From positions 10,913-74,912 of the forward strand of contig CAVPJI010000014.1 of the NCBI GenBank assembly GCA_963705215.1: a stretch of DNA of 64,000 nt, written 5' to 3'. This DNA is from an uncultured Chloroflexia bacterium (GTDB taxonomy: Bacteria > Chloroflexota > Limnocylindria > Limnocylindrales > CSP1-4). Below, in pieces: positions 15,289 to 41,876 of this stretch; position 1 is the stretch's first letter, and each line of letters starts with the position of its first letter. The position numbers and the translations under genes were made by a program. The notes under the pieces were generated by a model that saw nothing but the letters and a program-made list of their open reading frames with translations, was not told the origin of the DNA and made no database searches.

Positions 15289-15314
15289 TGCGCCCGATAC
15301 CCATGAGGCGTCAC

Positions 15315-22394: not shown

Positions 22395-22419
22395 GGTCCC
22401 ACCACGACGGGAGAGCCCA

Positions 22420-22977
22420 ATGACCACGACGCATGACTCGCTGCCCATCGCCGAGGCGCGACGGACCAGCCTCGGGCTGTACGTCACCGCGAAGGAGGCC
22501 TACGACATGTGGCAGGCCGACCCCGGCCTGAAGGTCCTCGACGTCCGCACGCCGGAGGAGTTCGTCTTCGTCGGCCACGCGCCGATGTCGGTGAACATCC
22601 CCTTCGCGCTGCAGACGTACGAGTGGGACCCCGAGAAGAAGGCGCTGCGCTGGGAGCTCAACCCGGAGTTCCTCGCCGCAGTGCAGGCATGGGCCGCGCC
22701 CGACGAGCAGATCCTCGTCGCCTGCCGGTCTGGGGGCCGCTCCGCGATGGCCATCAACATGCTGGCGAAGGCGGCCGGGTTCACGAGAGCCTGGAACATC
22801 CTCGACGGCTGGGAGGGGAGTCAGGTCAAGGACCCCGAGAGCGTCTTCGACGGCATGCGGATGAAGAACGGCTGGAAGAACTCCGGGCTGCCCTGGACCT
22901 ACGAGATCGACCCTGACCGGATGAAGCTGCCGGCGCGCCAGAGCCGGACCTTCGTGGCCGGGAACGAGCACGACTGA
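22420..22977 (+). CDS. Rhodanese-like sulfurtransferase
   Basis: LDVRTPEEFVFVGH...ACRSGGRS...ILDGWEG...GWKNSGLPW. Confidence 0.88.
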   Translation: MTTTHDSLPIAEARRTSLGLYVTAKEAYDMWQADPGLKVLDVRTPEEFVFVGHAPMSVNIPFALQTYEWDPEKKALRWELNPEFLAAVQAWAAPDEQILVACRSGGRSAMAINMLAKAAGFTRAWNILDGWEGSQVKDPESVFDGMRMKNGWKNSGLPWTYEIDPDRMKLPARQSRTFVAGNEHD

Positions 22978-23013
22978 GCGTCGGCTGCTCGCGGACATGT
23001 GGGGCTCGTCAGT

Positions 23014-24729
23014 CTAGCTGCTGCCCACCTCGCGTCCCAGCACCTCGACCGCCTCGGGGACCGAGCGGTAGAAGCGGCCCTCGTCGATCGTCTCGAGCAG
23101 CCCGTAGCGCACGATCGTGTCGCGGACGCTCGACTGGAGCTCGGCGAACGCGAGGTGGATCCCGGCCGAGTTCAGCTCGAGGTCCAGGTCCGCGAGCATG
23201 GCCCCCGCGGTCGTGTCGATGTCGGTGATCGGCTCGGCGGCGACGAGGACCCATTGCGGCGGTGCGGCGGCGGCCTTCACCAGCTCGCGGATCAGGTCGC
23301 GGAACTGGTTCGCGTTGGCGAAGAAGAGCGGCGCCGACCAGCGGACGATGAGCAGCCCCGGGACCTGCTCCGCGTCCGGGTAGCGCCGGATGTCGTGCCA
23401 GCCGGGGACGTCAGGATCCTTGCCGAGGACCGCGGAGTACGGGGCCCACGCGCGCTTGAAGATGTAGACCACGGACAGGGCAACCGCTACGACGATTCCC
23501 TGCAGGACACCGATGAACATGACGCCGAGCGCGCAGGCGACGGCAAGCGCGAACTCGGTCTTGCGGACGCGGAACAGCCTGCGCAGCTCGGCGACATCGA
23601 ACAGGCTGATCGAGGCGGCAATGACGACGGCAGCGAGCACCGGCTGCGGCATGTCCTGGACCAGGCCCGGGACGACGAGCAGCATCGCGATGACCAGGCC
23701 GGCCGCCACGAGGCCGGTCAGCTGGGTCTTCGCCCCGGACTGGAAGGCGACGGCCGTCCGCGAGCCGCTCGTGCTCACGGGGAACCCCGAGAAGAGGCCG
23801 GCCGCCAGGTTGGCGGAGCCGATCCCGGCCAGCTCCTGGTTCCCGTCGATCTCGTAGCCGGCGCGGCGGGCGAAGCCGCCGGAGGTGGAGATCGTGTCGC
23901 CGATGGCAACGAGCGAGATCCCCAGCGCCGACGCGAACAGCACGGGGATGTCCTCGAGCGGGACGGCCGGGAAGCTGGGCAGCGGGAACCCCTGGGGGAG
24001 CATCCCGATCACCGCGACGTCACGGCCCTCGAGGTCGAGCACGATCGAGAGCCCGATCGAGACGACCACCGCGACGAGGATGCCGGGCGTGCGCGGGGAC
24101 AACTTCTTGAGGCCAAGGATGATGACGAGGCTCAGGAGGCCGATCCCGAGCGCCCACGGGTTGGTCAGGTCGAGACTCTGCAGGAAGGCACGTGCCTCGT
24201 CTATGAGGCCGCTAGCGTCGGTCGAGAACCCGAACAGCTTGGGCAGCTGGCCGATGAAGATCGTGATCGAGAGGCCGGCGAGGTAACCGGTGCGCACGGG
24301 GCTCGAGAGGAGGTCGGCGACAAAGCCGAGCCGGGCCACGCCCGCACCGACCGTGACGACCCCAACCAGAAGCGCCAGCATCCCGGCGAGGGCGATCGCC
24401 ATTTCCTCGCTGCCGGCGGCGAGGGGCACGATCGTCGCAGCGATCATCGGCCCCAGCGACGAGTCGGGACCGAGGACGAGGATCGGCGACGGCCCGACCA
24501 GGGCGTAGGCCACGAGACACAGGACCGTCGTGTAGAGCCCGTGGATGGCGGGCAGCCCGGCCAGCTCCGCGTAGGCCATCCCCTGCGGGACCAGCAGCGT
24601 GACGAGGACGACGCCGGCGATCAGGTCACGCGACAGCCACGACCGCTCGTAGGTGCGGAGGACCCGGACGCCGGGCACCCACCGCTCGACTCGCGCGAGC
24701 CCGGGGCTCGCGGCCGCCGCCGTCTTCAC
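23014..24729 (-). CDS. SulP family anion permease with STAS domain
   Basis: DLIAGVVLVTLLVPQGMAYAELAGLP..GLY, NQELAGIGSANL, PLFFANA, DIDTT. Confidence 0.92.
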   Translation of the reverse strand: MKTAAAASPGLARVERWVPGVRVLRTYERSWLSRDLIAGVVLVTLLVPQGMAYAELAGLPAIHGLYTTVLCLVAYALVGPSPILVLGPDSSLGPMIAATIVPLAAGSEEMAIALAGMLALLVGVVTVGAGVARLGFVADLLSSPVRTGYLAGLSITIFIGQLPKLFGFSTDASGLIDEARAFLQSLDLTNPWALGIGLLSLVIILGLKKLSPRTPGILVAVVVSIGLSIVLDLEGRDVAVIGMLPQGFPLPSFPAVPLEDIPVLFASALGISLVAIGDTISTSGGFARRAGYEIDGNQELAGIGSANLAAGLFSGFPVSTSGSRTAVAFQSGAKTQLTGLVAAGLVIAMLLVVPGLVQDMPQPVLAAVVIAASISLFDVAELRRLFRVRKTEFALAVACALGVMFIGVLQGIVVAVALSVVYIFKRAWAPYSAVLGKDPDVPGWHDIRRYPDAEQVPGLLIVRWSAPLFFANANQFRDLIRELVKAAAAPPQWVLVAAEPITDIDTTAGAMLADLDLELNSAGIHLAFAELQSSVRDTIVRYGLLETIDEGRFYRSVPEAVEVLGREVGSS

Positions 24730-24730
24730 G

Positions 24731-25816
24731 TCAGAGCTGCGCGATGGCCCGGCCCAGGCCGCGCCGGTAGCTCGCCGCGACGATGGGTCGCCACGTGGGC
24801 TCGAACGTCCCGCGCAGCCGCTCCACGCCCTGGTCCAGGTGGGCGACGAGCTTCGCGATCGCCTTGCCCTGGGCGTCGGTCGGGGTCGTGGACGTCGCGA
24901 GCTCCCGGGCGCGCAGCGCGGCGACGTGGCGGTCGTGCTGGGTCCCCAGGTGGTCCTGGAGGGCGACGACCGGCCTGATCAGCGCCGTCACACCCGGTTC
25001 GAGCGGCTCTCGGACGAACTCGAGCGTGTAGCGCAGCCACTTGGCCGCGATCCGGAGCTCGTGGAGCGTGGCGAGATCGGCCGCCCCGAGGTCGCCGTCG
25101 AACGCCCACACGGACTGGTAGGCCTCCCAGATCGTCGCCGGCATCCGGTGGCGCAGGAGCCTGGGTGCATGGGGCGCGACGGGGAGCGCGGCGAGCCCCG
25201 GTGTCTCGACGAACCTGGAGTAGTCCGCGATGAACCCGGCGAAGCGCTCCGACTCGAGCTCCGCGACGAGATCGACGCGGCGCGCCTCCCGCTCGGCGCG
25301 CCACGCAGAGAGGAGGGGCTCGAGGCCGGCGCGCTGGCGGCCGCTGCGCTGCGTTCCGTAAGCCACGACGATCTCGATGAGGACGTCGAGGTCCCGGACC
25401 GCGCCCAGGCGAGCCCCGACGTCGCGCAGCTCGCCGCGATAACGCCGTCTCTCTTCGCGCTCGAACCCGTCGCCGAAGACCCGCCACGCGGCGCGCATCC
25501 GGCGGGCCGCGACGCGCATCGCGTGGACCTCCTCGGGGTCCTCGCCGGCGATGACGCCGGGCACCCGGGCCAGCATCCGCGCGAGGTGGAAGTGCAGGAT
25601 CTTGCGCCCGGCCTCGGCCCACGGATCGTCGGTCCGGACGTCCGGTGTCCGGCCGATCGCCGGGGTCGCCGCCGTGGGGGCGACGGCCTCCGAAGGGATG
25701 GGCTTCGCCGCGTCGCGATCGGGCGACTCGACGGCGTCGGTCTCGTGCGTCGGCGTTCCAGGCTCGCTCGAACCCACGTCGGACCCGCCCGACCCTGGCG
25801 TCGCACCGTCCATCAC
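24731..25816 (-). CDS. CHAD domain (polyphosphate-binding) protein
   Basis: VHAMRVAARRMR, LGAVRDLDV, LHELRIAAKWLRY, LQDHLG..HD. Confidence 0.9.
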   Translation of the reverse strand: MMDGATPGSGGSDVGSSEPGTPTHETDAVESPDRDAAKPIPSEAVAPTAATPAIGRTPDVRTDDPWAEAGRKILHFHLARMLARVPGVIAGEDPEEVHAMRVAARRMRAAWRVFGDGFEREERRRYRGELRDVGARLGAVRDLDVLIEIVVAYGTQRSGRQRAGLEPLLSAWRAEREARRVDLVAELESERFAGFIADYSRFVETPGLAALPVAPHAPRLLRHRMPATIWEAYQSVWAFDGDLGAADLATLHELRIAAKWLRYTLEFVREPLEPGVTALIRPVVALQDHLGTQHDRHVAALRARELATSTTPTDAQGKAIAKLVAHLDQGVERLRGTFEPTWRPIVAASYRRGLGRAIAQL

Positions 25817-25927
25817 GATCGGATCACCTGCCCCTCTCCGTCAAGCTTGCTTCTGCGCCCTGGCAGGATGCCCCGACGATGCGCCCGGGCGCGGCGGCGC
25901 GTCGGAGGTTTGCGCGGATCGCTCGCC

Positions 25928-26803
25928 TCAGAACGGGGTCGGGATGTAGTTCAGGGTCAGGTTCGGCTCCCTGCCCTTGCTGGACGCCTTGCGCTTGGGC
26001 AGCTCGATGTCGCGCGGCTCATCGGGCTCGTAGGGCACCCGGCTCAGCAGGTGGCTGATGATGTTGAGCCGGCCGCGCTTCTTGTCATCCGTCCGGGCGA
26101 TCCACCACGGCGCCCAGGGCGTGTCCGTCGCGGCGAACATCGCGTCCCGGGCCCGCGAGTAGTCGTCCCAGCGGCCATATGACTTGAGGTCCATGTCGGT
26201 CAGCTTCCAGGTCTTGCGCGGGTCGTGGATGCGCCCCTCGAGACGGCGCGTCTGCTCTTCGGGGCTGACCTCCAGCCAGTACTTGATGAGGATGATGCCG
26301 TTCTCCACCATGGCCTTCTCGACCGCCGGCACCTGCTCGAGGAACCGCTCTGTCTGCTCGGGCGTGCAGAAGCCCATGACCCGCTCGACTCCGGCGCGGT
26401 TGTACCAGCTCCGGTCGAAGATCACGACCTCGCCCGCGGCCGGGAAGTGCGTCATGTACCGCTGGACGTACATCTGCGACTTCTCGCGCTCGGTCGGGGC
26501 GGAGAGAGCGACAACCGTGAACACGCGCGGGCTGACCCGCTCGGTGATCCGCTTGATCGTGCCTCCCTTGCCGGCTGTGTCCCGACCCTCGAACACGATG
26601 CAGACCTTGGCGCCGGCCGCCTTCACCCATTCCTGCATCGCCACGAGCTCGCCGTGGAGACGGCGCATCTCGCGCTCGTAATCCTTGGTCGTCATCTTCG
26701 AGGAGGCCTCAGGCTGGGTCGCCGCGGGCTGGGTGGTCCCATCGCCCGGTTGGGCCTGGCCCTTCTCGAGCTTGCTGGCCTTCGTGTCCTTCTTCTTCAC
26801 CAC
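25928..26803 (-). CDS. ppk2: Polyphosphate kinase 2 (class I-like)
   Basis: FEGRDTAGKGG, FDRSWYNRAGVERVMGFC, DDKKRGRLN. Confidence 0.93.
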   Translation of the reverse strand: MVKKKDTKASKLEKGQAQPGDGTTQPAATQPEASSKMTTKDYEREMRRLHGELVAMQEWVKAAGAKVCIVFEGRDTAGKGGTIKRITERVSPRVFTVVALSAPTEREKSQMYVQRYMTHFPAAGEVVIFDRSWYNRAGVERVMGFCTPEQTERFLEQVPAVEKAMVENGIILIKYWLEVSPEEQTRRLEGRIHDPRKTWKLTDMDLKSYGRWDDYSRARDAMFAATDTPWAPWWIARTDDKKRGRLNIISHLLSRVPYEPDEPRDIELPKRKASSKGREPNLTLNYIPTPF

Positions 26804-26830
26804 GGATCTGATCCCTTCTGCCGGCGCTGA

Positions 26831-29599
26831 CTACGCCGCGGCGGCGACCGGAGCCGCCTGGGTCGCGGCCGCCTCGTCACCGAGACGGACCTTGAGGAGC
26901 TTGCGTGCTTCCTCGGCCACGATGAGCGACAGCGGGACGACGAGGCACACGGCCCACTGTTCGACCGACAGGCTGGCGGTCCCGAGGAGCCGCTGGAGGA
27001 AGCCGAGCTCGGTCGCCAGGATGATCGTCAGCACCGACAGGCCCGTCGCCACCAGCAGCGGCTTGTTCGCGAGGATGGACCCGCCGAAGAGCGACTCGTC
27101 CTGGTCCGCGGTCTCCAGGGAGGAGAAGAGACGGAAGAGCGAGAAGGTGGTGATGCCCATCGTGCGGGCGACCACGTCGCCGTAGCTCTCGTTGGCCCAG
27201 GCCAGCACCCCGAGCGTGCCCGCGGCCATGACGAGCCCCATGAACACGAGCCAGGTCATCAGGCGCCGCGGGATGATCCTCTGCTCCTTCGGCCGCGGCG
27301 GGACCTTCATGAGGCCCTCCCGCGGCTTGCCGTAGCCGAGGCCGATCGCCTGGAAGACGTTCACGGTGAAGTTGAGCCACATCGTCTGGAGCGGGAGGAA
27401 CGGGATCCCGCCCAGGATGTTGAGGAGCGCAGACCCGAGGAACGTCGCGATGTACCCGAACAGGCCCGCCATCTGGAAGCGGATGAACCGCAGCAGGTTG
27501 TCGTAGACGGCGCGCCCGAGGCCGACCGCCTTCACGATCGTGGCGTAGTTGTCGTCCGTGAGGATCATCACGGCAGCCTGCTTGGAGACCTCGGTCCCGG
27601 TGATCCCCATCGCGATGCCGATGTCTGCCTTCTTGAGCGCCGGCGCGTCGTTCACGCCGTCGCCGGTCATCCCGACGACATGGCCCTTCTTGCGCAGGAT
27701 GTCCACGAGGTGGACCTTGTCCTCGGGGGAGACGCGGGCGATGACGCCGATCCCGTCGATCTGGCGCATGGCCTCTTCATCGCTCATCGCGCGGAACTCG
27801 GCGCCGGTGATCGCGCGGCCCTCGATGCCGATCTGGTGGGCGATCGCGCCCGCCGTGACCGCGTGGTCGCCGGTGATCATCCGGACCTGGATCCCGGCCG
27901 CCTGGGCCTGGGCGATGGCGTCCTTCGCGGCTGGCCGCGGCGGATCCACGATCCCCACCATGGCGAGGAGCGTCAGCCCATCGATGGCGGGCAGCAGGTC
28001 CGCGTCCGGGTCGAACGTGGCCGGGTCGAAGTCCTTCTGGCCGGTCGCCATGACCCGGAGGCCCTGGGTGCCGAGGCGCTCGTTCTCGGTCATGTAGCCA
28101 TCGCGGATGTCGGCGATCGCGACGGGGCTGCCGTCGGGGCCGTGGGCGTCCTTCGCCCGGGCGAGAAGCTGGTCCGGCGCCCCCTTGATGTAGCCCCGGA
28201 TGACGTCCTTGCCGGCCTCGTCCTTCATCGCGTGGAACGTGGCCATCATCTTGTAGGCCGCGTCGAATGGCAGCGTCGCCACGCGGGGGTAGCGCTCGCG
28301 GGTGAGGGCCGGGTCGACGCCGCCCTTGGCCGCGAGGACCACGAGCGCGCCTTCGGTGGGGTCGCCGACGAGCCCGCCGTCCCGCACCTCGGCGTCCGCG
28401 CACAGGGCCATCGGCAGCAGGTACTGCTCCAATGAGACATCCGGCTGGCCGGCGGCGTGGGCGATCTGCCCGATCGTCGAGTAGCCGTCGCCGGAGATCG
28501 AGTAGCGGCGCCCGACGACCGCCATCTGGGTGGCGGTCATCTGGTTGAGGGTGAGGGTGCCGGTCTTGTCGGAGTTGAGCGCCGAGGTGGAGCCCAGCGT
28601 CTCCACCGAGCGGAGGCGCTTCATGATCGCGCCGGCATCGGCCAGCTGCTGGGAGCCCTTGGACAGGATGGCCGTCGTCACGGCCGGGAGCGCCGTGGGG
28701 ATGGCCGCCACCGCGAACGCCACCGCGCTGAGGAACAGCTCCTGGATCTGGACGCCGCGGTAGAGGCCGAGCGCCGTGGAGACCACGAGCGCGAGGCCGG
28801 CGATCACCAGGATCTGGTTCGTCAGCGCGTCCAGCTGCTTCGTCAGCGGGGTCTTCTCGACCTCCGTGGCCTGCAGCATGCCGCTGATGTGGCCGACCTC
28901 GGTCGCCATCCCGGTGGTCACGACGAGCACGGTGCCCGCCCCTCGGGTGACCTGGCAGTTCATGAACGCCATGTCGACGCGGTCCCCGAGGGCGGCGTCG
29001 GCGGCGACCGCGTCCGCCGACTTGGGCGTGGGGACGCTCTCCCCCGTCAGGGCAGACTCGTCGATCTCGAGAGTGGCCGCGGTCAGGATGCGCGCATCCG
29101 CCGGGACGAGATCACCGGCCTCGATGTTCACGATGTCGCCCGGGACGAGCTGGTCCATCGGGATCTCGACGAGGTTGCCGTCCCGCCGGGCTTTCGCCTT
29201 GACGACCATCATCCCTTGCAGGGCCGACGCGCTCGCCTCCGCCTTGCCCTCCTGGTTCATGGCCATCCACGCGTTGAAGACGGTCAGCAGGATCAGGAAG
29301 ACGCCGGTGTAGAACTGGCCGGGCAGGAAGAGGCAGACGATGCCCGCGACGAGGAGCACGAGCTGCATCGGATCCGCGTACTGGCGCGTGAACGCCTGCA
29401 GGCGGGAAACCTTCTTGGCCTCGGCGAACGTGTTCGGGCCGACCTTCGCGCGCCGCGCATCGGCCTCGGCCGAGGTCAGGCCGCCGTCGATGGTGACCTC
29501 CTGGGCCGCGAGAGCGGCATCCGGGCTGAGGGCGTGCCACGCAGGGGAGGCCAGCGTGGCCGGTGTGGGTCCGGCTGGCGTGCCGGTCTGCGAAGTCAT
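26831..29599 (-). CDS. P-type ATPase, P2A-like scaffold with atypical membrane site
   Basis: LTGES, DKTGTLT, KGAP, DPPR, MITGD and GDGVNDAP all intact; M4 reads AIPTALP. Confidence 0.92.
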   Translation of the reverse strand: MTSQTGTPAGPTPATLASPAWHALSPDAALAAQEVTIDGGLTSAEADARRAKVGPNTFAEAKKVSRLQAFTRQYADPMQLVLLVAGIVCLFLPGQFYTGVFLILLTVFNAWMAMNQEGKAEASASALQGMMVVKAKARRDGNLVEIPMDQLVPGDIVNIEAGDLVPADARILTAATLEIDESALTGESVPTPKSADAVAADAALGDRVDMAFMNCQVTRGAGTVLVVTTGMATEVGHISGMLQATEVEKTPLTKQLDALTNQILVIAGLALVVSTALGLYRGVQIQELFLSAVAFAVAAIPTALPAVTTAILSKGSQQLADAGAIMKRLRSVETLGSTSALNSDKTGTLTLNQMTATQMAVVGRRYSISGDGYSTIGQIAHAAGQPDVSLEQYLLPMALCADAEVRDGGLVGDPTEGALVVLAAKGGVDPALTRERYPRVATLPFDAAYKMMATFHAMKDEAGKDVIRGYIKGAPDQLLARAKDAHGPDGSPVAIADIRDGYMTENERLGTQGLRVMATGQKDFDPATFDPDADLLPAIDGLTLLAMVGIVDPPRPAAKDAIAQAQAAGIQVRMITGDHAVTAGAIAHQIGIEGRAITGAEFRAMSDEEAMRQIDGIGVIARVSPEDKVHLVDILRKKGHVVGMTGDGVNDAPALKKADIGIAMGITGTEVSKQAAVMILTDDNYATIVKAVGLGRAVYDNLLRFIRFQMAGLFGYIATFLGSALLNILGGIPFLPLQTMWLNFTVNVFQAIGLGYGKPREGLMKVPPRPKEQRIIPRRLMTWLVFMGLVMAAGTLGVLAWANESYGDVVARTMGITTFSLFRLFSSLETADQDESLFGGSILANKPLLVATGLSVLTIILATELGFLQRLLGTASLSVEQWAVCLVVPLSLIVAEEARKLLKVRLGDEAAATQAAPVAAAA

Positions 29600-30588
29600 G
29601 CCTTCTTCCCTTTCCCGGCCTTCTTCTCGGCCTTCTTGCCCGCGGCCTCGGCCGCCGTCGCGATCTCGATCGGGTCGGGCTCAGCTCCCGGCGGCGCCTG
29701 GCCCTCGAGCTCGACCTTGGCGGCCTGGAGAGCCGCGCGTGCCTCCGGGCTCACCTTCGGGAACCTGGGGTCGATCTCGATCAGCGTGTGGGCGATGACG
29801 CCGGCGGCGGCGACTCGCGCGAACGGCTTGTCGTCGGCCGGGATGACGTACCAGGGAGCCCACGACGTGCTCGTCTTCGACAGCACGTCCGCGAACGCCT
29901 TCTGGTAGTCGTCCCAATAGGCGCGCTCCTTCACGTCGCTGGCGCTGAACTTCCAGTTCTTGTCCGGCTCGTCGATCCGGGCGAGGAACCGGCGGCGTTG
30001 CTCCTCCTTGCTCACGTTGAGGAAGAGCTTGACGATCCGGAAGCCCTGGTCGGTGAGGTAGCGCTCCCAGTCGTTGATCTCGCGGAAGCGGCGATTCCAG
30101 ACGTCGCCCCGCTTGGACGAGGGCGGCAACTTCTGGCCGGCAAGGATCTGCGGGTGGACCCGGACGACGAGGACCTCCTCGTAGTAGCTGCGGTTGAAGA
30201 TCCCGATGTTGCCGCGCTCCGGCAGCTTCTTCGCGTAGCGCCAGAGGTAGTCGTGGTCGAGGTCCTCGGGCGACGGGACCTTGAAGCTGCTGACCTGGAC
30301 GCCCTGCGGGTTGACCCCGCTCATGACGTGCCCGATCGTGCCGTCCTTGCCGGCCGCGTCCATCGCCTGGAAGACGACGAGAAGGCCATACGTGTCCTGG
30401 GCGGCCAGCCGCGTCTGGTAGTCCGCGAGGAGGTCGACCACGGCGGCAAGGATCTCCCTGGCCTCGGCCTTGGACTGCTTCCTCGTGCCGGCCGGATCGA
30501 AGTCGCGCGGCAGGCGGACCCGCCGCCCGGGCTCTACGCGGAATGGCTGGATGAACTCCTCGATCCGCTTGGGTCTGAGGTCGGCCAT
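29596..30588 (-). CDS. ppk2: Polyphosphate:nucleotide phosphotransferase, PPK2 class III-like
   Basis: FQAMDAAGKDG, SFKVPS, FNRSYYEEVLVVRVH, KNWKFS; ATGA overlap with the ATPase. Confidence 0.92.
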   Translation of the reverse strand: MADLRPKRIEEFIQPFRVEPGRRVRLPRDFDPAGTRKQSKAEAREILAAVVDLLADYQTRLAAQDTYGLLVVFQAMDAAGKDGTIGHVMSGVNPQGVQVSSFKVPSPEDLDHDYLWRYAKKLPERGNIGIFNRSYYEEVLVVRVHPQILAGQKLPPSSKRGDVWNRRFREINDWERYLTDQGFRIVKLFLNVSKEEQRRRFLARIDEPDKNWKFSASDVKERAYWDDYQKAFADVLSKTSTSWAPWYVIPADDKPFARVAAAGVIAHTLIEIDPRFPKVSPEARAALQAAKVELEGQAPPGAEPDPIEIATAAEAAGKKAEKKAGKGKKA

Positions 30589-30685
30589 TGGGATGCCCCC
30601 GCTTGAAGCGTCGTGGCCTGATGGGTGCAGGAAAGCACGACGGAGATCTCGCGCGGCAGTCAATCACGGATTGGCGCCGCGCACC

Positions 30686-30702
30686 TCGTCCAAGTCGGAG
30701 GA
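30686..30702. promoter_or_regulatory. Candidate LuxR/MalT-type box
   Basis: TCGTCCAAGTCGGAGGA about 100 bp upstream of ppk2; similar 17-mers at 32590 and 33429. Confidence 0.45.
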
Positions 30703-30761
30703 TAGTCGGTCGCGATCGGTCGGTGCCGGACCAGCCCCGCAACACGCGCAGGGCGGTCCCG

Positions 30762-32372
30762 TCACGCGTCCCCGGTATCGTCCGCGGGCTCCGGCTCGGG
30801 CACGAGCGCCCCGTGGGGGAGGTCCTTGGTGAACGCGAGGGAGGCGAAGGCGATCAGCGCCGCGGCCAACAGGCCGGCCTTGAGCGACCGGAGCTGGGCC
30901 TCCTCGTAGTCGTCCACGAGCGCCTGGGTCGTGGCCTCGTCGAGCCCGGCCGCCCGCGCGGCAGCCTCGATATCGGCCGAAGCGACGAAGTCGATCCCGG
31001 ACCCGGCGGCGACACTCACCTGGGCTGCGACCTCGGCGCTGATTCGCTCGTCCGACTCGATCTTCGTCACGAACGTGCCGGTCAAACCGGCCAGCACGAT
31101 CGCCCCGATGAGGGCAACGCCGAGCGAGGAGCCGAGCTGCTGCCCCGTGTACTGGAGACCGCCTGCCTCACCCCGGCCCGAGGCGTCGACCGACGACTGG
31201 ACCACGAGGCCGAGCTGGGACGCGATGAGCCCCATCCCCACGCCGAGGACGGCCATCGACAGCGCGAAGGCCAGGTCCGCGAGGTCGGGCCGGATGGTGG
31301 CGAGCAGGGCGATCGCGGCCAGGCCGGTCAGTGCCAGGCCGGCCCGGGTGATCGACCGCACGGGGTAACGGACCGACAGGCGCGACCCGGCCGCGGCGGC
31401 GACGAACATCGCGATCGAGGCGGGCAGCATCTTGATCCCCGTCTGGAGCGCATCGAGGCCCAGGACGAGCTGCAGGTACAGGGGGATCGTGAAGAAGATG
31501 CCCATGAGGATCAGGTTCTGGGAGAAGAGGCCGATCAGGCCCGACCGCAGCGGCAGGATCTTCAGGAGGTCGAGGTGGACGAGCGGGTCGTTCCCGGTGG
31601 CCTCGCGGTGGCGCTGCCAGGCCACGAAGGCCCAGAGCAGCGCGGCGCCGGCGGCGATGACGAAGGGGGTCAGGGCGAGGCCGAACGGCTCGATGGGCGA
31701 ATCCTTCGGCTCGATCAGTCCCCAGGTGGTCGACTGGAGCACGCCCAGGACGACCGCGCCGAGACCGGTGGCGGCCAGGACGGAGCCGACGACATCCAGG
31801 CGCGGCTTCGGGCCGGTCCGGACGGCGTCGGCGACGAAGCGGGTCATGGCGAGGATGCCGATCACGATGACGACCTCGCCCAGGAAGACCACCCGCCATG
31901 ACAGCTCCGTGGTGGCCCACCCGCCCACGATGGGACCGATGGCGATCCCCGCGCCTGCCACGCCGCCGATCACCGCGTAGGCGACCTTGCGCTCCTTGCC
32001 CTCGAAGTTGCCCGCGATCAGAGCCGCCATCGCGGGCAGCACCAGGGCCGCCCCGATCCCCTCGAGGATCGACCATCCCAGGGTCAGCTGCGCCACCGTC
32101 TGCGACACGGCAGTCAGGCCCGAGCCGCAGGCGTAGATGACGAGGCCGATCACGAAGGCCCGTCGCCGGCCGATGATGTCGCCGATCTTGCCGCCCGTGA
32201 GCATCAGCATGGCCATCACCAGGCAGTAGAGGGTGATGACCGCCTGGATCGTGGTGACCGTCGTCTCGAAGTCGGCGACCAGCTGGCTGATCGAGACGTT
32301 CATGACCGACTGGTCCAGGACCATGATGAACTGGGCACCTGCGAGCGCGACCAGCGGCCACCGACGCTTCAT
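30762..32372 (-). CDS. MFS transporter (DHA2/EmrB-like, 14 TM)
   Basis: AQFIMVLDQSVMNVSI, GGKIGDIIGRRR, GPIVGG. Confidence 0.9.
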   Translation of the reverse strand: MKRRWPLVALAGAQFIMVLDQSVMNVSISQLVADFETTVTTIQAVITLYCLVMAMLMLTGGKIGDIIGRRRAFVIGLVIYACGSGLTAVSQTVAQLTLGWSILEGIGAALVLPAMAALIAGNFEGKERKVAYAVIGGVAGAGIAIGPIVGGWATTELSWRVVFLGEVVIVIGILAMTRFVADAVRTGPKPRLDVVGSVLAATGLGAVVLGVLQSTTWGLIEPKDSPIEPFGLALTPFVIAAGAALLWAFVAWQRHREATGNDPLVHLDLLKILPLRSGLIGLFSQNLILMGIFFTIPLYLQLVLGLDALQTGIKMLPASIAMFVAAAAGSRLSVRYPVRSITRAGLALTGLAAIALLATIRPDLADLAFALSMAVLGVGMGLIASQLGLVVQSSVDASGRGEAGGLQYTGQQLGSSLGVALIGAIVLAGLTGTFVTKIESDERISAEVAAQVSVAAGSGIDFVASADIEAAARAAGLDEATTQALVDDYEEAQLRSLKAGLLAAALIAFASLAFTKDLPHGALVPEPEPADDTGDA

Positions 32373-32589
32373 CGACCCTGCCTCTCGTGTGTCAGACCAC
32401 GCATCCGGCGGGGCGATACTCCCATAGGCGGGCCCGCGCCGCGAGGCCGAGCCGCGCCCGCGCCAACGCCGGGGTGGACGAACAAACGCCACCGTCCGAG
32501 CGCGACCTGGGGGTTCGCCAGCGCCCTCCGCCCCTCTGGGCCACAATGGCCGCGCGCCCGAGGACCTCGCCACCGGTCGAGCAGGATCT

Positions 32590-32606
32590 TCGCTCGAACC
32601 GGACGA
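32590..32606. promoter_or_regulatory. Candidate LuxR/MalT-type box
   Basis: TCGCTCGAACCGGACGA upstream of the DUF1269 gene, in the divergent region. Confidence 0.4.
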
Positions 32607-32657
32607 GAGACCCACCGCAGGTCCTGGCCGGCGCTGCACGGACGGGAGAATCCATCC

Positions 32658-33275
32658 ATGACGGACGAGAAGACCACCCCGGCGGATGACGTCGTCGTCG
32701 TCGTTGCCGGGCAGATCGCGGATGACCAGGGCGTGCTTGCCGAAGCGGCGATCGCGGCCCAGGGCGACCAGGCCCTGATCGTGGCCCGGTTCGCCGACAC
32801 CGAGACTGCCATGGCGATCTACGACGTGCTGATCGAAGCGGAGATCTCCGGCGATCTCGACATCGACGGCGTGCTGGTGGCCAAGGCCGACGAGGGCGGC
32901 CGGATCCACATCCAGAAGATGACCGAGCACAGCACCCGCAAGGGCCTCAAGTGGGGGATCGTGGGCGGCGTGGTCGCCGGGATCTTCCTGCCCGCGACGA
33001 TCATCGGCGGCGCGGTCGCCCTCGGCGTGGCCGGGGCCGCGGCGGGCAAGGCCCGCAACCTCTACCACAGGGTCGAGGTCGAGAAGGCGCTGACGGACGT
33101 CATCACCCCGGGCACGTCGGGCATCCTCTGCCTCGTCTCGGCGCCGGCCGCAGCGACGATCGCGAAGAAGATGCCGGAGGCCCAGGAGATCAAGACCGTC
33201 CCGGTCGACGCCGAGACCGCCGGCGCGATCAAGGCCGCAGCTGCCGCCGCCGACGCGGGGGCGCCCAGCGCCTGA
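32658..33275 (+). CDS. DUF1269-like membrane-associated protein
   Basis: DGVLVAKADEGGRIHIQK...GLKWGIVGGVVAGIFLP...PGTSGI. Confidence 0.7.
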   Translation: MTDEKTTPADDVVVVVAGQIADDQGVLAEAAIAAQGDQALIVARFADTETAMAIYDVLIEAEISGDLDIDGVLVAKADEGGRIHIQKMTEHSTRKGLKWGIVGGVVAGIFLPATIIGGAVALGVAGAAAGKARNLYHRVEVEKALTDVITPGTSGILCLVSAPAAATIAKKMPEAQEIKTVPVDAETAGAIKAAAAAADAGAPSA

Positions 33276-33344
33276 TCCGGGTTTCGCGCGGCCAGGCCGA
33301 CAACCGAGGGGAATCGGCCGTCGCTGCGGGTGCCCGAGGTCTTC

Positions 33345-33383
33345 ACGCCCGCCGCCCCGACGACCGGGGCGGCGGGCGTTTCT
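33345..33383 (+). terminator. Rho-independent terminator
   Basis: ACGCCCGCCGCCCCG-acgac-CGGGGCGGCGGGCGT perfect 15-bp stem followed by TTCT. Confidence 0.75.
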
Positions 33384-33428
33384 ACGTGCGACGGCCGATA
33401 ACCCATGCAGCGCCCGCGTGAGACGGCG

Positions 33429-33445
33429 TCATCCCAACGAGATGA
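33429..33445. promoter_or_regulatory. Candidate LuxR/MalT-type box
   Basis: TCATCCCAACGAGATGA, 70 bp upstream of the CMD-like gene. Confidence 0.5.
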
Positions 33446-33514
33446 TGCGAGGCGCCCTGCCCCGGGCTTGAATGGAGCGGTCCAGGCGCAGGGAAGCACG
33501 ACCGGAGGTCGGCG

Positions 33515-33943
33515 ATGAGCGGCAGCACGGGCCCATCCACCCGAGCGGCATTCCGTCGCCTGACGCTGGGCGACACGGCGCTCATCGCGGCGATGGCCGA
33601 CCCGGGGGTCCGCGAGCCGAGCGTCCATCACCTCGACCCGTGGACCGAGGCCCTGGTGAGGATCGGCGTGCTGGTCGCGCTCGACGCCCCGCCGTCGTCC
33701 TTCCGGAGCGCCGTCGATGCGGCCCAGATGGCCGGGGCTCAGCTCGACGACCTGCTGGCCGTGCTCACGGCTGTCGCCGGGCCTGTCGGTTCCGCGCGGG
33801 TCATCTCGACCGCACCGCGAATCGCGCTGGCCGCCGGCTACGACGTCGAAGCGGCGCTGGAGCAGGTGCGCTCACCGGACGACGACGGGGATCCGCCCGC
33901 CGGCCCGGCCGGGGACGCGGACGGAGGCGCCGGCCCGCGGTAG
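33515..33943 (+). CDS. Carboxymuconolactone decarboxylase (AhpD)-like protein, no CxxC
   Basis: LDPWTEALVRIGVLVALDA...AGAQLDDLLAVLTAVAGPVGSARV...LAAGYD. Confidence 0.7.
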   Translation: MSGSTGPSTRAAFRRLTLGDTALIAAMADPGVREPSVHHLDPWTEALVRIGVLVALDAPPSSFRSAVDAAQMAGAQLDDLLAVLTAVAGPVGSARVISTAPRIALAAGYDVEAALEQVRSPDDDGDPPAGPAGDADGGAGPR

Positions 33944-34114
33944 CACCCGAGCCGCGATCATCGGGGCGTGCGGCATCGCCCGGATCCCCGAGCTCCTGCG
34001 GCGCTTCGTCGCGGCGCTCCGCCCTGCGTCGAGTCGCGTGCTGGATAGCCCGGTGGACCTCATGCTAGGGTGTTGGCGGCCCGATTCCGGGTCATCACCG
34101 CACACGAGGGCTTG

Positions 34115-36438
34115 ATGGCGGTCGCCGAAGACGATCCCCGACGCCGGGCCACGGAAGCGGCGGGCAAGGCAGCTGACCGTCCTCGCTTCCTCCCGCCGGT
34201 CCCGCTGGTGGAAGCCAAGCTTGTGCCGCCCGCGCCTCGTGCCGGGATCATCGAGCGAACGCGGCTCATCCGTCTCCTGACCGCCGAGCCGGCCGCGTCG
34301 ATCGTCTCGATCGTGGCCCCGCCGGGGTACGGGAAGACCCTGCTCCTCGCCGACTGGGCAGCACGAGAGCCCCGACCCGTGGCCTGGCTGACGCTCGACG
34401 ACCACGACAACGACCCCGCCGTCTTCCTGTCGTACCTCGCCGCGGCCTTCGACCGGATCGAGCCGATTGACAGCTCCATCATGTCAGCGATCGTGGCCCC
34501 CAGGCGACGGATCCTCTCGACGGCGGTCCCGCGTCTCGCGTTCGAGCTCCACCGCTGGGGCCGGCCGGCCCTGATCGTCCTCGACGATGTCCACCGACTG
34601 GTCGATCGAACCTGCCTCGAGGCCCTGGCCGAGCTCCTGGACCACCTGCCTCCCGGGCTCCGGGTCGCGCTGGCGGCACGGACCGTGCCGGGCCTGCCCT
34701 TCGGGCGCATCCGGGCGGATGGCAACCTGCTCGAGATCGGCACGAGCCTGCTGGCCCTGGACGAGACCGAGACCGAAGCGCTGACGGCGGCGATCGGCCA
34801 CAAGCTGACCGCCAGATGAGGTCCGGGAGCTGGCCGACCGGACCGAAGGCTGGGCGGCCGGGGTCTACCTGGCTGCCCTGGCCCGGGATCACGGAGACCA
34901 GGGTGACGCACCGATGGGTGACCTCTCCGGCCGGGAGCGCTTCATCGCCGATTACTTCCGCTCGGAGCTCCTCCGGACCCTGCAAGGCGATGACGGCACG
35001 TTCCTGACCCGAACGTCGATCCTGGAGAGGGTGGAGCCCGAGGTCGCGCAGGCGGTCGCCGGACTGCCTGGCGCCTCGGAGCGACTCCGGTCGCTCGCGC
35101 ACGCGAACCTCTTCGTCGAGCCGGCCGGCAGCGCGCAGGAGTCGTACCGCTACCACCACCTGCTCCGGGACTTCCTCGGGGCGGAGCTGGAACGACGAGA
35201 GCCGGGCACCACGAGCGGGCTCCACCGCCGGGCTTCCGCCTGGTATGCCGCCAACGGCCCCATCGATCTCGCGATCAGGCATGCGAACGCCGGCGGCGAT
35301 GTCGACGATGCCGCGCGTCTCGTCACGGCCGCCACCCTGCCGACCTACTACGGCGGCCGCACGGCCACGCTGGAACGATGGCTCGAGGGCTTCGACGAGG
35401 CCGTCTTCGAGCGGCAGCCGGCGCTGGCCGTCATGGCCGGCTGGGTCCACATCCTCAACGGGCGGGCGGATGAGGCCGATCGCATGGCGGACATCGCGGA
35501 GCGTTCGACGTTCGTCGGCCGCTCGGACGATGGCGCGGCGTCGTTCGCGTCGTCGAGGTCGATGCTTCGGGCCATCATGGGCCGGCGCGGACCGGAGGAT
35601 GCGCTGGCGAATGCGGCCTTCGCCGTCTCCCACGAAGCGCCGGGGAGTCGCTGGCGAGGCGTGGCGCTCTTCCTCCTGGGGTCTGCCCACCTGCAGCGCG
35701 GGGACGTGGATGCGGCCGACGCGGCGTTCCGGGACTCCGCGGCCGCGGCACCTGCGGTGGGCGGGGCATCTCCGATCGCCGCGGCGAAACGATCCTCCAT
35801 CGCGATTGGGAGAGGCGACTGGAAGGCGGCGGAGACGCTGGCCCGGGAGAGCCGGAAGATCCTCACCGGTGCCCACCTGGAGGAGCTCGCCTCCGCAGTC
35901 GTCGTGTACGCCGTCGGCGCGCGGGTCGCCTTCCATCTCGGCGACGTCGCAGGCGGGCGGGCGGACCTGGTTCGCGCCCAGGTCGTGCGCCCGCTGGCGT
36001 CGCATGCGGCGCCGGGATACTCGGTCGATGCCCTCCTCGAGCTGGCGCGGGCCTACCTGGCCACCTCCGACGTGGCAGGCGCCCGGAGCGTCGTCCGGGA
36101 GGCCGAGGAGATCGTCCACCGGCGCCCCGCCCTCGGGGTCCTCGTGACGGAGCTCGCGGAGATCCGGCGACAGCTCGGAGATGCCGCCTCCACCCTCGCC
36201 GGATCATCGTCGCTTGACCGCCGCCGAGCTGCGGTTGCTGCCGATCCTGCCCACGTACCTCTCGTTCCAGGAGATCGCCGACGGCCTGTCCCTCTCGCGG
36301 AACACGGTGAAGACGCAGGCCCTCTCGATCTACGGGAAGCTCCAGGCGTCGTCGCGCGGCGAGGCGGTCGAGCGAGCGGTCGAGCTCGGGCTCCTGGAGC
36401 CGTTCCCCGTCGTGGAGGCCATCCGCCGGGCCCGCTGA
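34115..36438 (+). CDS. MalT-like LuxR family STAND regulator; two +1 frameshifts near 34812 and 36214 (probable sequencing errors)
   Basis: APPGYGKT, WLTLDDHDND, LIVLDDVH; after the first shift RTEGWAAG and YRYHHL; after the second shift LTAAELRLL...SFQEIADGLSLSRNTVKTQ..SIYGKL (LuxR HTH). Confidence 0.85.
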
Positions 36439-36564
36439 GGCAGCTCGGGCGGGCGGCGCCGTGGGGGCGCCCTGCGATACTCCCGGCACGGGCAACGGAC
36501 CGGAAGCCGTTGCCGCGGACCCTCACCTGCGTCAGCGGCGGCCGGGCCATGGGGCGTGTCGGCA

Positions 36565-36600
36565 CGCATCAATGCATCACAGAGATGATGCTATGATGCG
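36565..36600 (+). promoter_or_regulatory. Double-box operator and -10 element of vapBC
   Basis: CGCATCA-AT-GCATCA-CAGAGA-TGATGC-TA-TGATGCG; TATGAT at 36592-36597, ATG at 36604. Confidence 0.7.
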
Positions 36601-39365: not shown

Positions 39366-41876
39366 CTACAGCGCCGCGACGGCCTCTTCCAGCCGCTGGG
39401 TCGCGACCACCGCGTCCGTGTCGGAATCGAAGATGATCGGGGCGCCCACCACGAGCTCCACGTCCCCCCGGAAGGAGCTGGGCAGCCGGCGTCGGTCGAT
39501 GATCGACATCCGATTGATCCGCAGCTTCACCGGCACGATGGGCGTGCCGCCCTCCACGGCGATGAGGCCGGCGCCCGCCTTGAACGGCTGCAGCGGTCCG
39601 CCAACGGTCAGCTTGCCCTCCGGGTAGAGGAGGATGTGGAAGCCCTTGTCGAGCCGCGCCCCGAGCAGCTCGAGGCTGCGCCGCACGGACCCCTCGCGGG
39701 CAAGCGGGAACGCGTTGGCGAGGACGGAGGCGAGGACGCCCTTGACCGGGTTGCCGTAGATCGTCTCGGCGCCGGCGGCCACCGAGAGCTTCCAGCGGAC
39801 GGAGAGCGGCAGGCGGCTCAGGATGATCGCGTTGTCCAGGTGGAGGCAGTGGTTCGGCGTGATGAGGACCGGCCCATCGAGGTCGCGGAGGGCCTCCATC
39901 CCGGTCGTCCGGACCCGGTAGAACACGGTGGCCAGCGGGTACATGATGAAGAGCTGGGAGGCGACGCCGACCGCCCGGGCGAGCGGGCTGAGCGGCCAGC
40001 TCCAGCGCATCGGCTTGCGTTTCTGGCCGCGGGCCGCCTCGATCATCGCGGCGACCTCGGCGACGGTCGCGTCCGGCGCGAGCGCGTCGTCGTCGAGGTA
40101 GATGCCGAGCTCCTCCTCGATGACGCCGAGGAGCTCGACCCGCTTGAGCGAGTCCATCTCGAGGTCCGACTCCAGGCGCGCCGTCGGGACGAGCCGGTCG
40201 GCGGGCACGCCGGCGACCTCGGCGATCACGGCCGCGACCGGGTCGGCCGGCAGCCCGTCGAGCTTCGCCCCGATCCTCGTCGAGCCCGCGGTCGCGGCCG
40301 ATGCCCCTGCCGCGGCGGCCGCGACCAGCTCCGGCAGCCTCTCCAGGACCAGGGGCTTCTTCACCTTGAGGGTGTGCGTCCGGGGCAGGTCCTCCTCCGG
40401 CCAGACGGTGAAGCCGCGGACCCGCTGGTGGGGGGCGAGGCGCTCGTTCGCCGCCTTGACGACGTCCTCGGCCGCGGCCGGGTCGTCGAGGAGGAGGACG
40501 GCGTGGACGCGGAGGTCGGTGCCGGGCGGCCAGCCGACGACCGCCGCGTCGGTGAGTCGCTCGTCCTGGCGCAGGATCGCCTCCACGTCCTCGGCATAGA
40601 CCTTCTGCCCGTCGGGCAGGGCCAGCATGTCCTTCTTGCGGCCGCGGAAGACGAGGAACCCGTCGGGGGTGAGCTGGCCGAGGTCGCCGGTGTGGTACCA
40701 GCCCTCGGCGTCGATCGCGGCCGCGGTGGCCTCCGGGTTCCGCCAGTAGCCGGCGAAGCGGCCGGGGCCGCGGGCCAGGACCTCGCCGTCCTCGGCGAGG
40801 CGGATCTCGACGCCGGGGATCGGCTCGCCGACCGTCTCCATCCGGTTCCGCTCCGGCCGCGTGAACGTGACCACCGGGCCCATCTCCGTGGCCCCATAGC
40901 CCTGGAGGACGTCGATCCCCATCTCCGTCCAGCGCCTGCCGAGCTCGACGTCCATCGCCGAGGCGCCCAGGCCGACGGTGTGGAGCTTGCCGCCGATCGG
41001 CGAGAGGACCGGCGAGAAGAGGATCCGCCGGGCGGGCTTCGGGAGCGGCCGGGCGAGGGCGTGGAGGCGCTCGAACGCATCGCGGCGGCCGGCCTGGTCG
41101 ACCCGCCGTTCGATCGCGGTGTCGATCAGCCGGAGGCCCTGCGGCACGATGAGCAGGATCGAGGCCTTGAAGTCGCGGAACGTCCGCAGGAGGACGATCG
41201 GCTGGCGGCTCACCGGGTAGACGACGCTGGCCCCCACGGTGAGCGGCGCGATGAACCCCAGGACCTGCTCGTAGAGGTGGGAGAGCGGCAGGACCGAGAC
41301 CATCCGGTCGTCCTTGCCGAACGGCACGATCGCGGTCATGGCGGCGGTCACGGAGAGCAGGTTGCGGTGGCTGAGCATCGCCCCTTTCGGATCGCCCGTC
41401 GTTCCGCTCGTGAAGACGATCTCGGCCAGGTCATCCGGGGCCACCGCGGCCGGCGGCAGCGGCTCCGCGCGCCGGGCGCGGTCCGGCAGCGACTCGACCA
41501 GGACGACCGGGAGGCCGAGCTGGCGGGCGGCCTTCTCGGTCTGGCGCGAGGCGAGGACGAGGCGCGCGTCGGTCTGGGCAGCGATCTTCCGCCCGAAGTC
41601 GACGGGGTGGCGAACGTCGAGGGGCACGGCGACGCCCCCGGCATGGATCAACCCGAAGAAGGCGAGACCCCACTCGGGCCGGTTCACGGACCAGAGGATC
41701 GCCCGGTCGCCGGGGGTGATTCCCTCGTCGGCGAGCACGCGCGCAACCCGCGGAACGGTCGAGCGAAGGTCGCGGTAGCGCAGGACGCGGGTCCGGAACG
41801 AGGGGCGGATCATCAGGGCGGGCCGACGGTCGAACCGGGCGCCGACCTCCTCCACCAGCTGGACGAGCGTCTCCAT
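39366..41876 (-). CDS. Trifunctional acyl-AMP ligase - ACP - PlsC-type acyltransferase
   Basis: FTSGTTGDPKG, QGYGATE and YHTGD (adenylation); MDSLKRVEL (phosphopantetheine Ser); NHCLHLD and YPEG (acyltransferase). Confidence 0.9.
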   Translation of the reverse strand: METLVQLVEEVGARFDRRPALMIRPSFRTRVLRYRDLRSTVPRVARVLADEGITPGDRAILWSVNRPEWGLAFFGLIHAGGVAVPLDVRHPVDFGRKIAAQTDARLVLASRQTEKAARQLGLPVVLVESLPDRARRAEPLPPAAVAPDDLAEIVFTSGTTGDPKGAMLSHRNLLSVTAAMTAIVPFGKDDRMVSVLPLSHLYEQVLGFIAPLTVGASVVYPVSRQPIVLLRTFRDFKASILLIVPQGLRLIDTAIERRVDQAGRRDAFERLHALARPLPKPARRILFSPVLSPIGGKLHTVGLGASAMDVELGRRWTEMGIDVLQGYGATEMGPVVTFTRPERNRMETVGEPIPGVEIRLAEDGEVLARGPGRFAGYWRNPEATAAAIDAEGWYHTGDLGQLTPDGFLVFRGRKKDMLALPDGQKVYAEDVEAILRQDERLTDAAVVGWPPGTDLRVHAVLLLDDPAAAEDVVKAANERLAPHQRVRGFTVWPEEDLPRTHTLKVKKPLVLERLPELVAAAAAGASAATAGSTRIGAKLDGLPADPVAAVIAEVAGVPADRLVPTARLESDLEMDSLKRVELLGVIEEELGIYLDDDALAPDATVAEVAAMIEAARGQKRKPMRWSWPLSPLARAVGVASQLFIMYPLATVFYRVRTTGMEALRDLDGPVLITPNHCLHLDNAIILSRLPLSVRWKLSVAAGAETIYGNPVKGVLASVLANAFPLAREGSVRRSLELLGARLDKGFHILLYPEGKLTVGGPLQPFKAGAGLIAVEGGTPIVPVKLRINRMSIIDRRRLPSSFRGDVELVVGAPIIFDSDTDAVVATQRLEEAVAAL

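Follow-up and report, generated by a model that had tools for sequence, protein, structure and literature searches.

Genes at the pump locus

We analysed a 64,000-nucleotide window from a soil Chloroflexota bacterium (contig CAVPJI010000014.1, about 70% G+C), in which the gene for a P2-type P-type ATPase, hereafter the pump, lies on the minus strand between two genes for predicted polyphosphate kinase 2 (PPK2) enzymes. By its sequence, the pump is assigned to a distinct clade of LMCA1/SPCA-like P2-type pumps that have lost negative charges in the transport pathway. Gene calls guided by G+C content at third codon positions (GC3), combined with Pfam matches, gave the minus-strand order major facilitator superfamily (MFS) transporter, PPK2, pump, PPK2, CHAD, and SulP with STAS, as follows:

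26831..29599, minus strand: the pump, open reading frame (ORF) P0001, a P2-type P-type ATPase of 922 amino acids by ORF and translation, starting at ATG
29596..30663, minus strand: upstream PPK2, 355 amino acids (Pfam PPK2 5.8e-65; TIGR03709 362.5 bits, above cut-off)
25928..26803, minus strand: second PPK2, 291 amino acids (Pfam PPK2, PF03976, 1.5e-96; TIGR03707 352.2 bits, above cut-off)
24731..25816, minus strand: CHAD-domain protein, 361 amino acids (Pfam CHAD 1.4e-48)
23014..24729, minus strand: SulP-family anion transporter with STAS, 571 amino acids (Pfam Sulfate_transp and STAS; TIGR00815 418.6 bits, above cut-off)
30762..33068, minus strand: DHA2-type MFS transporter, upstream of the module and loosely linked to it, start codon uncertain

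The TGA stop of the upstream PPK2 overlaps the ATG of the pump as ATGA, behind a purine-rich run resembling a Shine-Dalgarno sequence, and the second PPK2 starts 27 nucleotides downstream of the pump stop codon. The two PPK2 proteins fall into different NCBIfam subfamilies, each above its own cut-off, and the GKD motif and other invariant columns of the Walker A and lid regions are present across 41 aligned sequences, by which we predict that both neighbours are polyphosphate kinase 2. An earlier reading from sequence alone had placed the pump between two PPK2 genes near CHAD and SulP; this placement is real, and stronger than the sequence alone showed. A scan of 22400-33600 for promoters and terminators returned nothing above shuffled sequences, and a complex prediction joining pump residues 20-700 to residues 39-355 of the upstream PPK2, using 41-row alignments, gave an ipSAE of 0.00 in both runs. 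Two RNA-library runs matched about 5% of sampled words, with short contigs covering parts of the operon, among them one of 251 nucleotides that spans the PPK2/pump junction at 29416-29666 with 11 differences. These contigs are not counted as evidence of expression, as DNA carry-over and relatives are both possible sources.

The pump itself belongs to the P-type ATPase superfamily (HAD-IC) by motifs, domains and fold. It carries the Pfam domains E1-E2_ATPase, Cation_ATPase_N, Cation_ATPase_C, Cation_ATPase and Hydrolase, and scores 264.1 bits against a cut-off of 62.3 with the generic P-type model TIGR01494. The catalytic motifs are intact, as had been read from the sequence: TGES at residue 185, DKTGT at 344, TGD at 576 (MITGD at 574) and GDGVND at 646, and the same holds in all 81 aligned clade sequences. 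An AlphaFold2 (AF2) model built from a 41-sequence alignment (mean pLDDT 78.5) resolves into A, N and P domains and a ten-helix membrane part; M4 unwinds at residues 300-303, where the break between helices 285-299 and 304-321 falls at IPTALP. Foldseek matched this model to SPCA1a and SERCA with TM-scores of 0.78-0.83. With its motifs and fold preserved, the enzyme is predicted to be catalytically competent.

Residues of the transport site

We mapped the transport site by HMMER alignment of the pump to LMCA1, its best solved relative (E 8.8e-139). The positions concerned, together with the phosphorylation motif, are:

28685..28702, minus strand: M4 motif IPTALP, residues 300-305, with Thr302 in place of the gating and ligand Glu (IPEAL in LMCA1)
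27452..27478, minus strand: M5 FQMAGLFGY, residues 708-716, with Leu713 in place of Asn and Tyr716 at the position of SERCA Glu771
27350..27376, minus strand: M6 LNFTVNVFQ, residues 742-750, with Asn743 kept, Asn747 in place of the Ca2+-ligand Asp and Gln750 in place of Pro
27125..27145, minus strand: M8 FSLFRLF, residues 819-825, with Arg823 at the position of LMCA1 Arg795 and SERCA Glu908
29306..29308, minus strand: Thr98, at the outer M2 end, in place of the Asp or Glu of canonical pumps
28556..28570, minus strand: DKTGT phosphorylation motif, residues 344-348, preceded by the clade-specific Asn342 and present in 81/81 clade sequences

In M5, AGLFGY of the pump aligns with AGNLGA of LMCA1, setting Tyr716 opposite the Ala that stands for SERCA Glu771; in M6, NFTVN aligns with NLVND; and in M8, FRLF aligns with ARTL, so that Arg823 matches the LMCA1 Arg. 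This alignment bears out, at all five positions, the comparison with SERCA that had been made by eye. In the part of the LMCA1 study available to us, the single Ca2+ is held by Glu292, Asn716 and Asp720 together with backbone carbonyls, site I is filled by Arg795, which stands where SERCA has Glu908, Ala691 takes the place of Glu771, and the equivalences with SERCA are Glu292/Glu309, Asn716, Asp720/Asp799-800, Arg795/Glu908 and Ala691/Glu771 (PMC11468904). All five canonical positions of the pump thus lack a carboxylate, leaving amide and hydroxyl donors and one unpaired arginine, Arg823. Since two of the three side-chain ligands of LMCA1's sole Ca2+ site are gone, we infer that the pump could not bind Ca2+ as LMCA1 does, which upholds the proposal, made from the sequence, that Ca2+ could not be bound in the usual manner.

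We compared these positions with 117 canonical pumps, one representative per 50%-identity cluster from the best 150 hits of an exhaustive search, aligned with the 41-sequence clade alignment. Amongst the canonical pumps, the M4 position is Glu in 116/117, the M5 position Asn in 108/117 and the M6 position Asp in 100/117. The M5 position is instead Leu in 37 of the 41 clade sequences, and position 98, which is Asp or Glu in 111/117 canonical pumps, is Thr in all 41. The summed charge of M4, M5, M6 and M8 is +0.90 in the clade against −1.84 in canonical pumps, and that of the M1-M2 loop −0.10 against −1.62.

A conserved clade with variable site chemistry

The sequence-only reading would have failed had the substitutions been unique to this one protein. 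A word-indexed search recovered at least 120 clusters of relatives at 83-98% identity; where an automatic name is given, it is either 'Ca2+-transporting ATPase' or 'cation-translocating P-type ATPase'. A genome scan with one genome per species yielded 181 encoding stretches; the 80 best of these serve as the genome loci, and by record title they are Chloroflexota-type metagenome-assembled genomes (MAGs), except one labelled Actinomycetes. Uninterrupted full-length proteins were obtained from 77 loci (three short or interrupted ones were dropped) and, with the query, form a set of 78 sequences at 63-91% identity. Within this set Thr302 is conserved in 77/78, Asn743 in 77/78, Gln750 in 76/78, Arg823 in 68/78 and Asn747 in 66/78. 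The triplet Thr302/Asn747/Arg823 occurs in 64 of the 78; five have Thr/Asp/His, four Thr/Thr/Arg and two Thr-or-Ser/Gln/Asn, and in the last three the C-terminal part is disrupted. The residues at M6 and M8 thus vary in concert: Asn or Thr goes with Arg, Asp with His, and Gln with Asn. Amongst the 64 Asn/Arg sequences, 15 of 21 positions in M4 and 13 of 19 in M6 are invariant, compared to 347 of 922 overall, which argues that the site is maintained and not decaying.

Alignment and a tree (FastTree, 122 sequences, 893 columns, LG+gamma, midpoint root) recovered the expected PT[AG]LP clade as a bipartition of 91 tips with a Shimodaira-Hasegawa-like (SH-like) support of 0.99, including the distant members P0121, P0122, P0126, P0133 and P0146; the node uniting the Asn/Arg and Asp/His subtypes has a support of 1.0. 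The pump has the features by which we define the clade here: Thr98, Leu or Cys at 713, Asn743-Phe744, a place within the 91-tip bipartition and an adjoining PPK2 on the same strand. Forty-six positions are clade-specific (conserved in 85% or more of the clade and shared with no more than 10% of canonical pumps), amongst them Thr98, Leu713, Phe744, Val746, an inserted Gly731 and Asn342 before the phosphorylated Asp. Fifteen of the 46 fall in the nucleotide-binding domain (residues 396-546 and 573; window about 27880-28414). They include Thr442 for Glu, Tyr449 replacing Arg in the PFDxxRK motif, Arg508, and Arg573 before TGD, and might point to a changed way of handling nucleotides or to a surface on which PPK2 docks.

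The sister family of P0126, 45-47% identical to the pump, contains several site types: an uncharged VPMAMP, an IPEAMP that keeps the M4 Glu, a new M5 Glu, and an LMCA1-like Glu/Asp/Arg. In loci L093-L139 of this family, M4 reads VPMAMP, M6 NFLITAPVG and M8 FSLMLV, with no charge at any canonical site position, and a PPK2 lies directly upstream of the pump. The VPMAMP motif presumably resembles the PIAMP motif of plasma-membrane H+-ATPases. Among 300 genomes sampled from the phylum, neither P0122 nor P0126 had a high-identity match (best 60%). P0127 and P0132, which come nearest among representatives keeping both the M4 Glu and the M6 Asp, are 47% identical to the pump, already have Thr98 and carry Thr or Ser for the M5 Asn; by these residues they look like intermediates. 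Sequencing runs whose DNA holds the pump-locus sequence come from wetland, sediment and soil metagenomes.

Linkage of the clade to PPK2

In 71 of the 80 genome loci, a same-strand PPK2 gene lies no more than about 500 bp from the pump, upstream only in 40 and downstream only in 31; the remaining nine, which have full flanks, have none beside it. CHAD follows within 2.5 kb in 12/80 and SulP in 18/80. Amongst 80 metagenome loci of the P0126 sister family, PPK2 adjoins the pump in 63 (63 of the 67 with enough flank); four loci with full flanks have no PPK2, and 13 are too short to tell. As relatives are not independent, these fractions overstate the number of independent events. Controls lacked the linkage: none of six canonical pumps (35-37% identical, from same-genus genomes) had PPK2, CHAD or SulP within 6 kb, none of seven canonical pumps from other genomes of the phylum had PPK2 within 1.5 kb, and the CopA-like pump and KdpB of the window's own genome had no PPK2, CHAD or SulP within 6 kb.

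The neighbour may be either of the two PPK2 subfamilies on either side, and the link holds even as PPK2 subfamily, side and pump subtype change. In five MAGs with two paralogous pumps at separate loci, each pump has its own PPK2 (L019/L069, L016/L071, L029/L089, L061/L092, L057/L081), as do the tandem paralogs of L056 at 8001-10754 and 13099-15828. Adjacency also holds across the site types of the sister family, carboxylate-bearing ones included, and the partnership is therefore a property of the whole clade; from this distribution it probably predates carboxylate loss.

Unbiased clustering of neighbouring ORFs over all 160 loci ranked SulP next (42 loci), followed by MFS (23), DUF2252 (20), an ABC exporter (13), a TMEM175-type K+ channel (11), CLC (7) and Ppx/GppA (6). 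SulP lies near 21 of 47 loci of the pump's own subtype, and TMEM175 near 9 of 16 loci of a sister Asn/Arg subtype with M5 AACYGY (for example L062:12532-13227). Ppx/GppA is found near three of four Asp/His-subtype loci.

The sequence-only reading took the PPK2 neighbourhood to make phosphate or another anion a candidate cargo, an argument that is not supported here. As clade members with an M4 Glu, an M5 Glu or Glu/Asp/Arg share the neighbourhood, the PPK2 link says nothing specific about cargo, and we rejected it as a marker of phosphate transport; the partnership argues for a functional tie to polyphosphate, not for phosphate as cargo. Besides PPK1 and a third PPK2, the window's genome (2.54 Mb, 81% complete) encodes a Pit-type transporter and a PstB that passes its family cut-off. 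The idea of an organism without other phosphate uptake is accordingly rejected, and given Pit, PstB and PPK1, there is no sign that the organism needs a pump for phosphate. This 81%-complete genome yielded no canonical P2 pump; its other P-type ATPases are the CopA-like pump and KdpB. The KdpB match (L202, contig C11, 5775-9640) is spread over two overlapping ORFs in different frames, with the longer one also showing a match to the N-terminus of KdpA; a frameshift, an assembly error or an ORF-calling artefact may explain this.

Interpretation of pump function and cargo

From these observations we infer functional coupling to PPK2, as well as the nature and direction of the cargo. That the pump is active and functionally tied to PPK2 and polyphosphate seems probable. 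The pump would be made together with PPK2, one copy translationally coupled upstream and the second 27 nucleotides downstream, followed by CHAD and SulP. Since PPK2 interconverts polyphosphate and nucleoside triphosphate (NTP), the simplest arrangement would be that ATP regenerated from polyphosphate beside the pump drives it when energy is scarce; alternatively, the pump may handle ions that are bound or freed by polyphosphate turnover. Judged by its site residues, the pump would move a species other than Ca2+, and that it is not a Ca2+ pump appears very likely. The opposite view, an ordinary Ca2+-exporting ATPase that tolerates the substitutions, can draw on the automatic names of close relatives and on Ca2+ pumps being the best solved relatives, but is extremely improbable given that two of the three LMCA1 side-chain ligands are replaced, that the score falls below every NCBIfam Ca2+-ATPase cut-off and that the M4 Glu and M6 Asp are near-constant in canonical relatives.

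We favour a polyphosphate/PPK2-coupled pump with a non-Ca2+ substrate, leaning to an anion or another non-metal cargo, and give this reading a probability of roughly 0.4. The chemistry of the site favours such a cargo because the pocket offers an unpaired Arg together with amide and hydroxyl donors, and no acid remains at the outer mouth. In the Asn/Arg subtype, a small anion or other non-metal species could be bound at Arg823, Asn743, Asn747, Thr302 and Gln750, and by analogy with K+ in the Na,K-ATPase and lipids in P4 pumps it might be taken up in the E2P half-cycle. An anion in particular is a doubtful cargo. The boldest version, the first anion-pumping P-type ATPase, with phosphate or a small oxyanion held at Arg823 by Asn, Gln and Thr donors and forming one unit with its own PPK2, is distinctly improbable.

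Several points weigh against the favoured reading. We know of no P-type ATPase that pumps an anion. For a Cl- ATPase, the part of the published account available to us offers kinetic claims without a gene (PMC3319893). The PPK2 link also covers clade members with site carboxylates (IPEAMP, the M5 Glu, Glu/Asp/Arg), and site charge varies amongst close paralogs, from Asn/Arg and Thr/Arg to Asp/His, Gln/Asn and the apolar Met/Thr/Leu, a variability as consistent with cation specificities that have diversified, or with cargo travelling outside the canonical site, as with anions. The genome's own Pit, above-cut-off PstB and PPK1 count in the same direction. Furthermore, a cytosolic ATP-regenerating enzyme need not be encoded beside its consumer, and co-regulation in polyphosphate mobilisation, such as counter-ion export, would give the same synteny.

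The alternative that survives best, although we consider it unlikely, is a cation pump (K+, Na+, Mg2+ or H+) serving counter-ion homeostasis of polyphosphate, exporting or importing cations as they are bound or released while PPK2 builds or consumes the polymer. To our knowledge, all characterised P2 and P3 pumps move cations. Backbone carbonyls of the unwound M4 would hold the ion together with Asn743, Thr302 and Asn747, and Arg823 would supply an internal counter-ion, the role proposed for Arg795 in LMCA1. Such an arrangement has a precedent in LMCA1, which, in the portion of the study available to us, binds Ca2+ beside Arg795 and partly through backbone carbonyls (PMC11468904), and the pump keeps both Asn743 and the M4 prolines. 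Related PPK2-linked pumps retain Glu/Asp/Arg or Glu, so that cations were probably the cargo of the ancestral PPK2-linked pump, with paralogs perhaps differing in counter-ion; the TMEM175-type K+ channel near more than half of the sister Asn/Arg loci points the same way. However, with no carboxylate at the five canonical positions and an unpaired Arg, a bound cation would face net positive charge; the outer-mouth acid is lost throughout the aligned clade, and K+ is already served in this genome by Kdp.

A cargo that is large or amphipathic, be it a lipid, an organic or lipid-linked molecule or even polyphosphate itself, handled in the manner of P4 and P5 pumps, is improbable. Here the canonical ion site would be filled in, and the cargo would move along a groove and trigger dephosphorylation of E2P. 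The only P-type pumps known to us that lack acidic canonical sites are P4 and P5, which carry large cargo, and P4 pumps have a basic residue in the site. The clade-wide changes are hydrophobic (Leu713, Phe744, Val746) or polar but uncharged (Gln79, Thr98, Thr106, Thr253 and Thr260 in M1-M3), and the sister family includes the fully uncharged Met/Thr/Leu site. Scores with the P4 and P5 models are nevertheless far below cut-off, the conserved neighbourhood contains no accessory-subunit or lipid-metabolism gene, and nothing ties PPK2 to lipid transport.

Highly improbable, finally, is a non-transporting derivative in which ATP/ADP-phosphoenzyme cycling acts with PPK2 as a sensor or regulator of polyphosphate or energy, with a vestigial ion site. 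The high variability of the site amongst paralogs, the private PPK2 partner of each paralog and the many clade-specific residues in the nucleotide-binding domain would suit this, whereas the strong conservation of the membrane site within a subtype (the M4 and M6 invariance noted above) and the retention of all ten helices and the unwound M4 in the model argue against it.

Other genes near the module

On the plus strand, we observed a small CMD-like ORF (33446-33943), an AAA_16/AAA_22 ATPase (34070-34819) and, in another frame, a TPR_MalT match (34914-36596); the last two may represent separate genes, or a single STAND-type regulator that a frameshift has split. The CMD-like and AAA ORFs have homologues within a few kb of the pump-PPK2 module in many related loci (for example L014, L026, L039, L048, L076-L078, L082, L088), and these genes may regulate the module. 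Farther along, 39366-42449 on the minus strand encodes 1027 amino acids with AMP-binding, phosphopantetheine-attachment and acyltransferase domains, an Aas-like fusion of acyl-ACP synthetase and acyltransferase, followed by DUF4397, adenosine deaminase and GGDEF-EAL genes.

Implications

P-type ATPases rank with the transporters that are understood best, and what they carry is deduced from a small number of acidic residues. Because these specificity-setting residues have been replaced in this clade under clear purifying selection, its automatic annotation as 'Ca2+-transporting ATPase' is very probably wrong. The clade is widespread in soil, wetland and sediment metagenomes, and its near-obligate pairing with PPK2 raises the testable idea that polyphosphate stores and a primary pump form one module in slow-growing soil bacteria. 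If true, an anion or a non-metal cargo of another kind would widen the chemistry known for P2 pumps, and a cation held without any carboxylate would be a new mode of binding as well. Under the anion reading, polyphosphate would directly fuel, or be fed by, membrane transport, and the paralogs with private PPK2 partners would constitute a family of polyphosphate-energised pumps with different cargoes.

In the literature searched, we found no description of the PT[AG]LP clade or of the PPK2-pump gene pair, a search whose scope did not extend to the catalogue of uncharacterised bacterial P-type families or the supplements of PPK2 studies, and no paper on a P-type ATPase paired with PPK2, CHAD or polyphosphate. 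In the part available to us, a paper on PPK2 distribution analyses only PPK2-PPK2 adjacency, and the PPK2 papers searched make no mention of pump pairing.

Comparison with known systems

The pump scores below every specific family cut-off in NCBIfam, coming nearest to the PMR1-type and then the SERCA-type Ca2+-ATPase models. Within P2A, it reaches 545.6 of the 798.3 bits required by TIGR01522 (PMR1) and 495.9 of 703.4 for TIGR01116 (SERCA), and of the site II ligands (M4 Glu, M6 Asn, M6 Asp) solely Asn743 is kept. The P2B model (PMCA type, TIGR01517) gives 385.2 against 507.05 bits, and the single Glu/Asn/Asp site is lost. The M6 Asp is the proton acceptor of P3A H+-ATPases; the pump has no Asp in M6 and scores 375.8 against 615.5 bits with TIGR01647. 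The remaining models are likewise missed: P3B Mg2+-ATPase (TIGR01524, 327.9 against 610.75), KdpB (TIGR01497, 137.4 against 527.9), P4 (TIGR01652, 59.4 against 431.25) and P5 (TIGR01657, 187.8 against 618.25).

The solved relatives of the pump are, best first, LMCA1, SPCA1 and SERCA. LMCA1 from Listeria monocytogenes (PDB 6zhf, 9euq) aligns over residues 36-902 and shares the length class, catalytic motifs, M6 Asn and M8 Arg, whereas the pump has Thr302 for its Glu, Asn747 for its Asp, Leu for the M5 Asn and Thr for the outer M2 acid. SPCA1/PMR1 and SERCA provide the best structural matches and the best NCBIfam models, but the pump lacks their carboxylate ligands and remains well below their curated cut-offs. 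The P4 flippases and P5 pumps, whose cargo binds E2P and is imported, would be alike only in a possible mode of working, by analogy of a canonical site without cation-binding carboxylates; by model scores and its PTALP motif in M4, the pump is not a member of either. As for bacterial P2-like families outside the classical groups, CtpE of Mycobacterium smegmatis (family 23 of the 'functionally uncharacterized' P-type ATPases, Ca2+ uptake) has 791 amino acids, VPEGL in TM4 and ten helices according to the part of its description available to us (PMC5615198). The pump likewise has ten helices; its 922 amino acids and IPTALP set it apart from CtpE, a distinction drawn from that published description and not from an alignment. 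A functional analogy can finally be drawn with the membrane H+-pyrophosphatase, an unrelated protein family in which an inorganic phosphoanhydride store energises membrane transport, as would also be the case here if PPK2 fuels the pump, although the coupling would be indirect, through the NTP that PPK2 forms.

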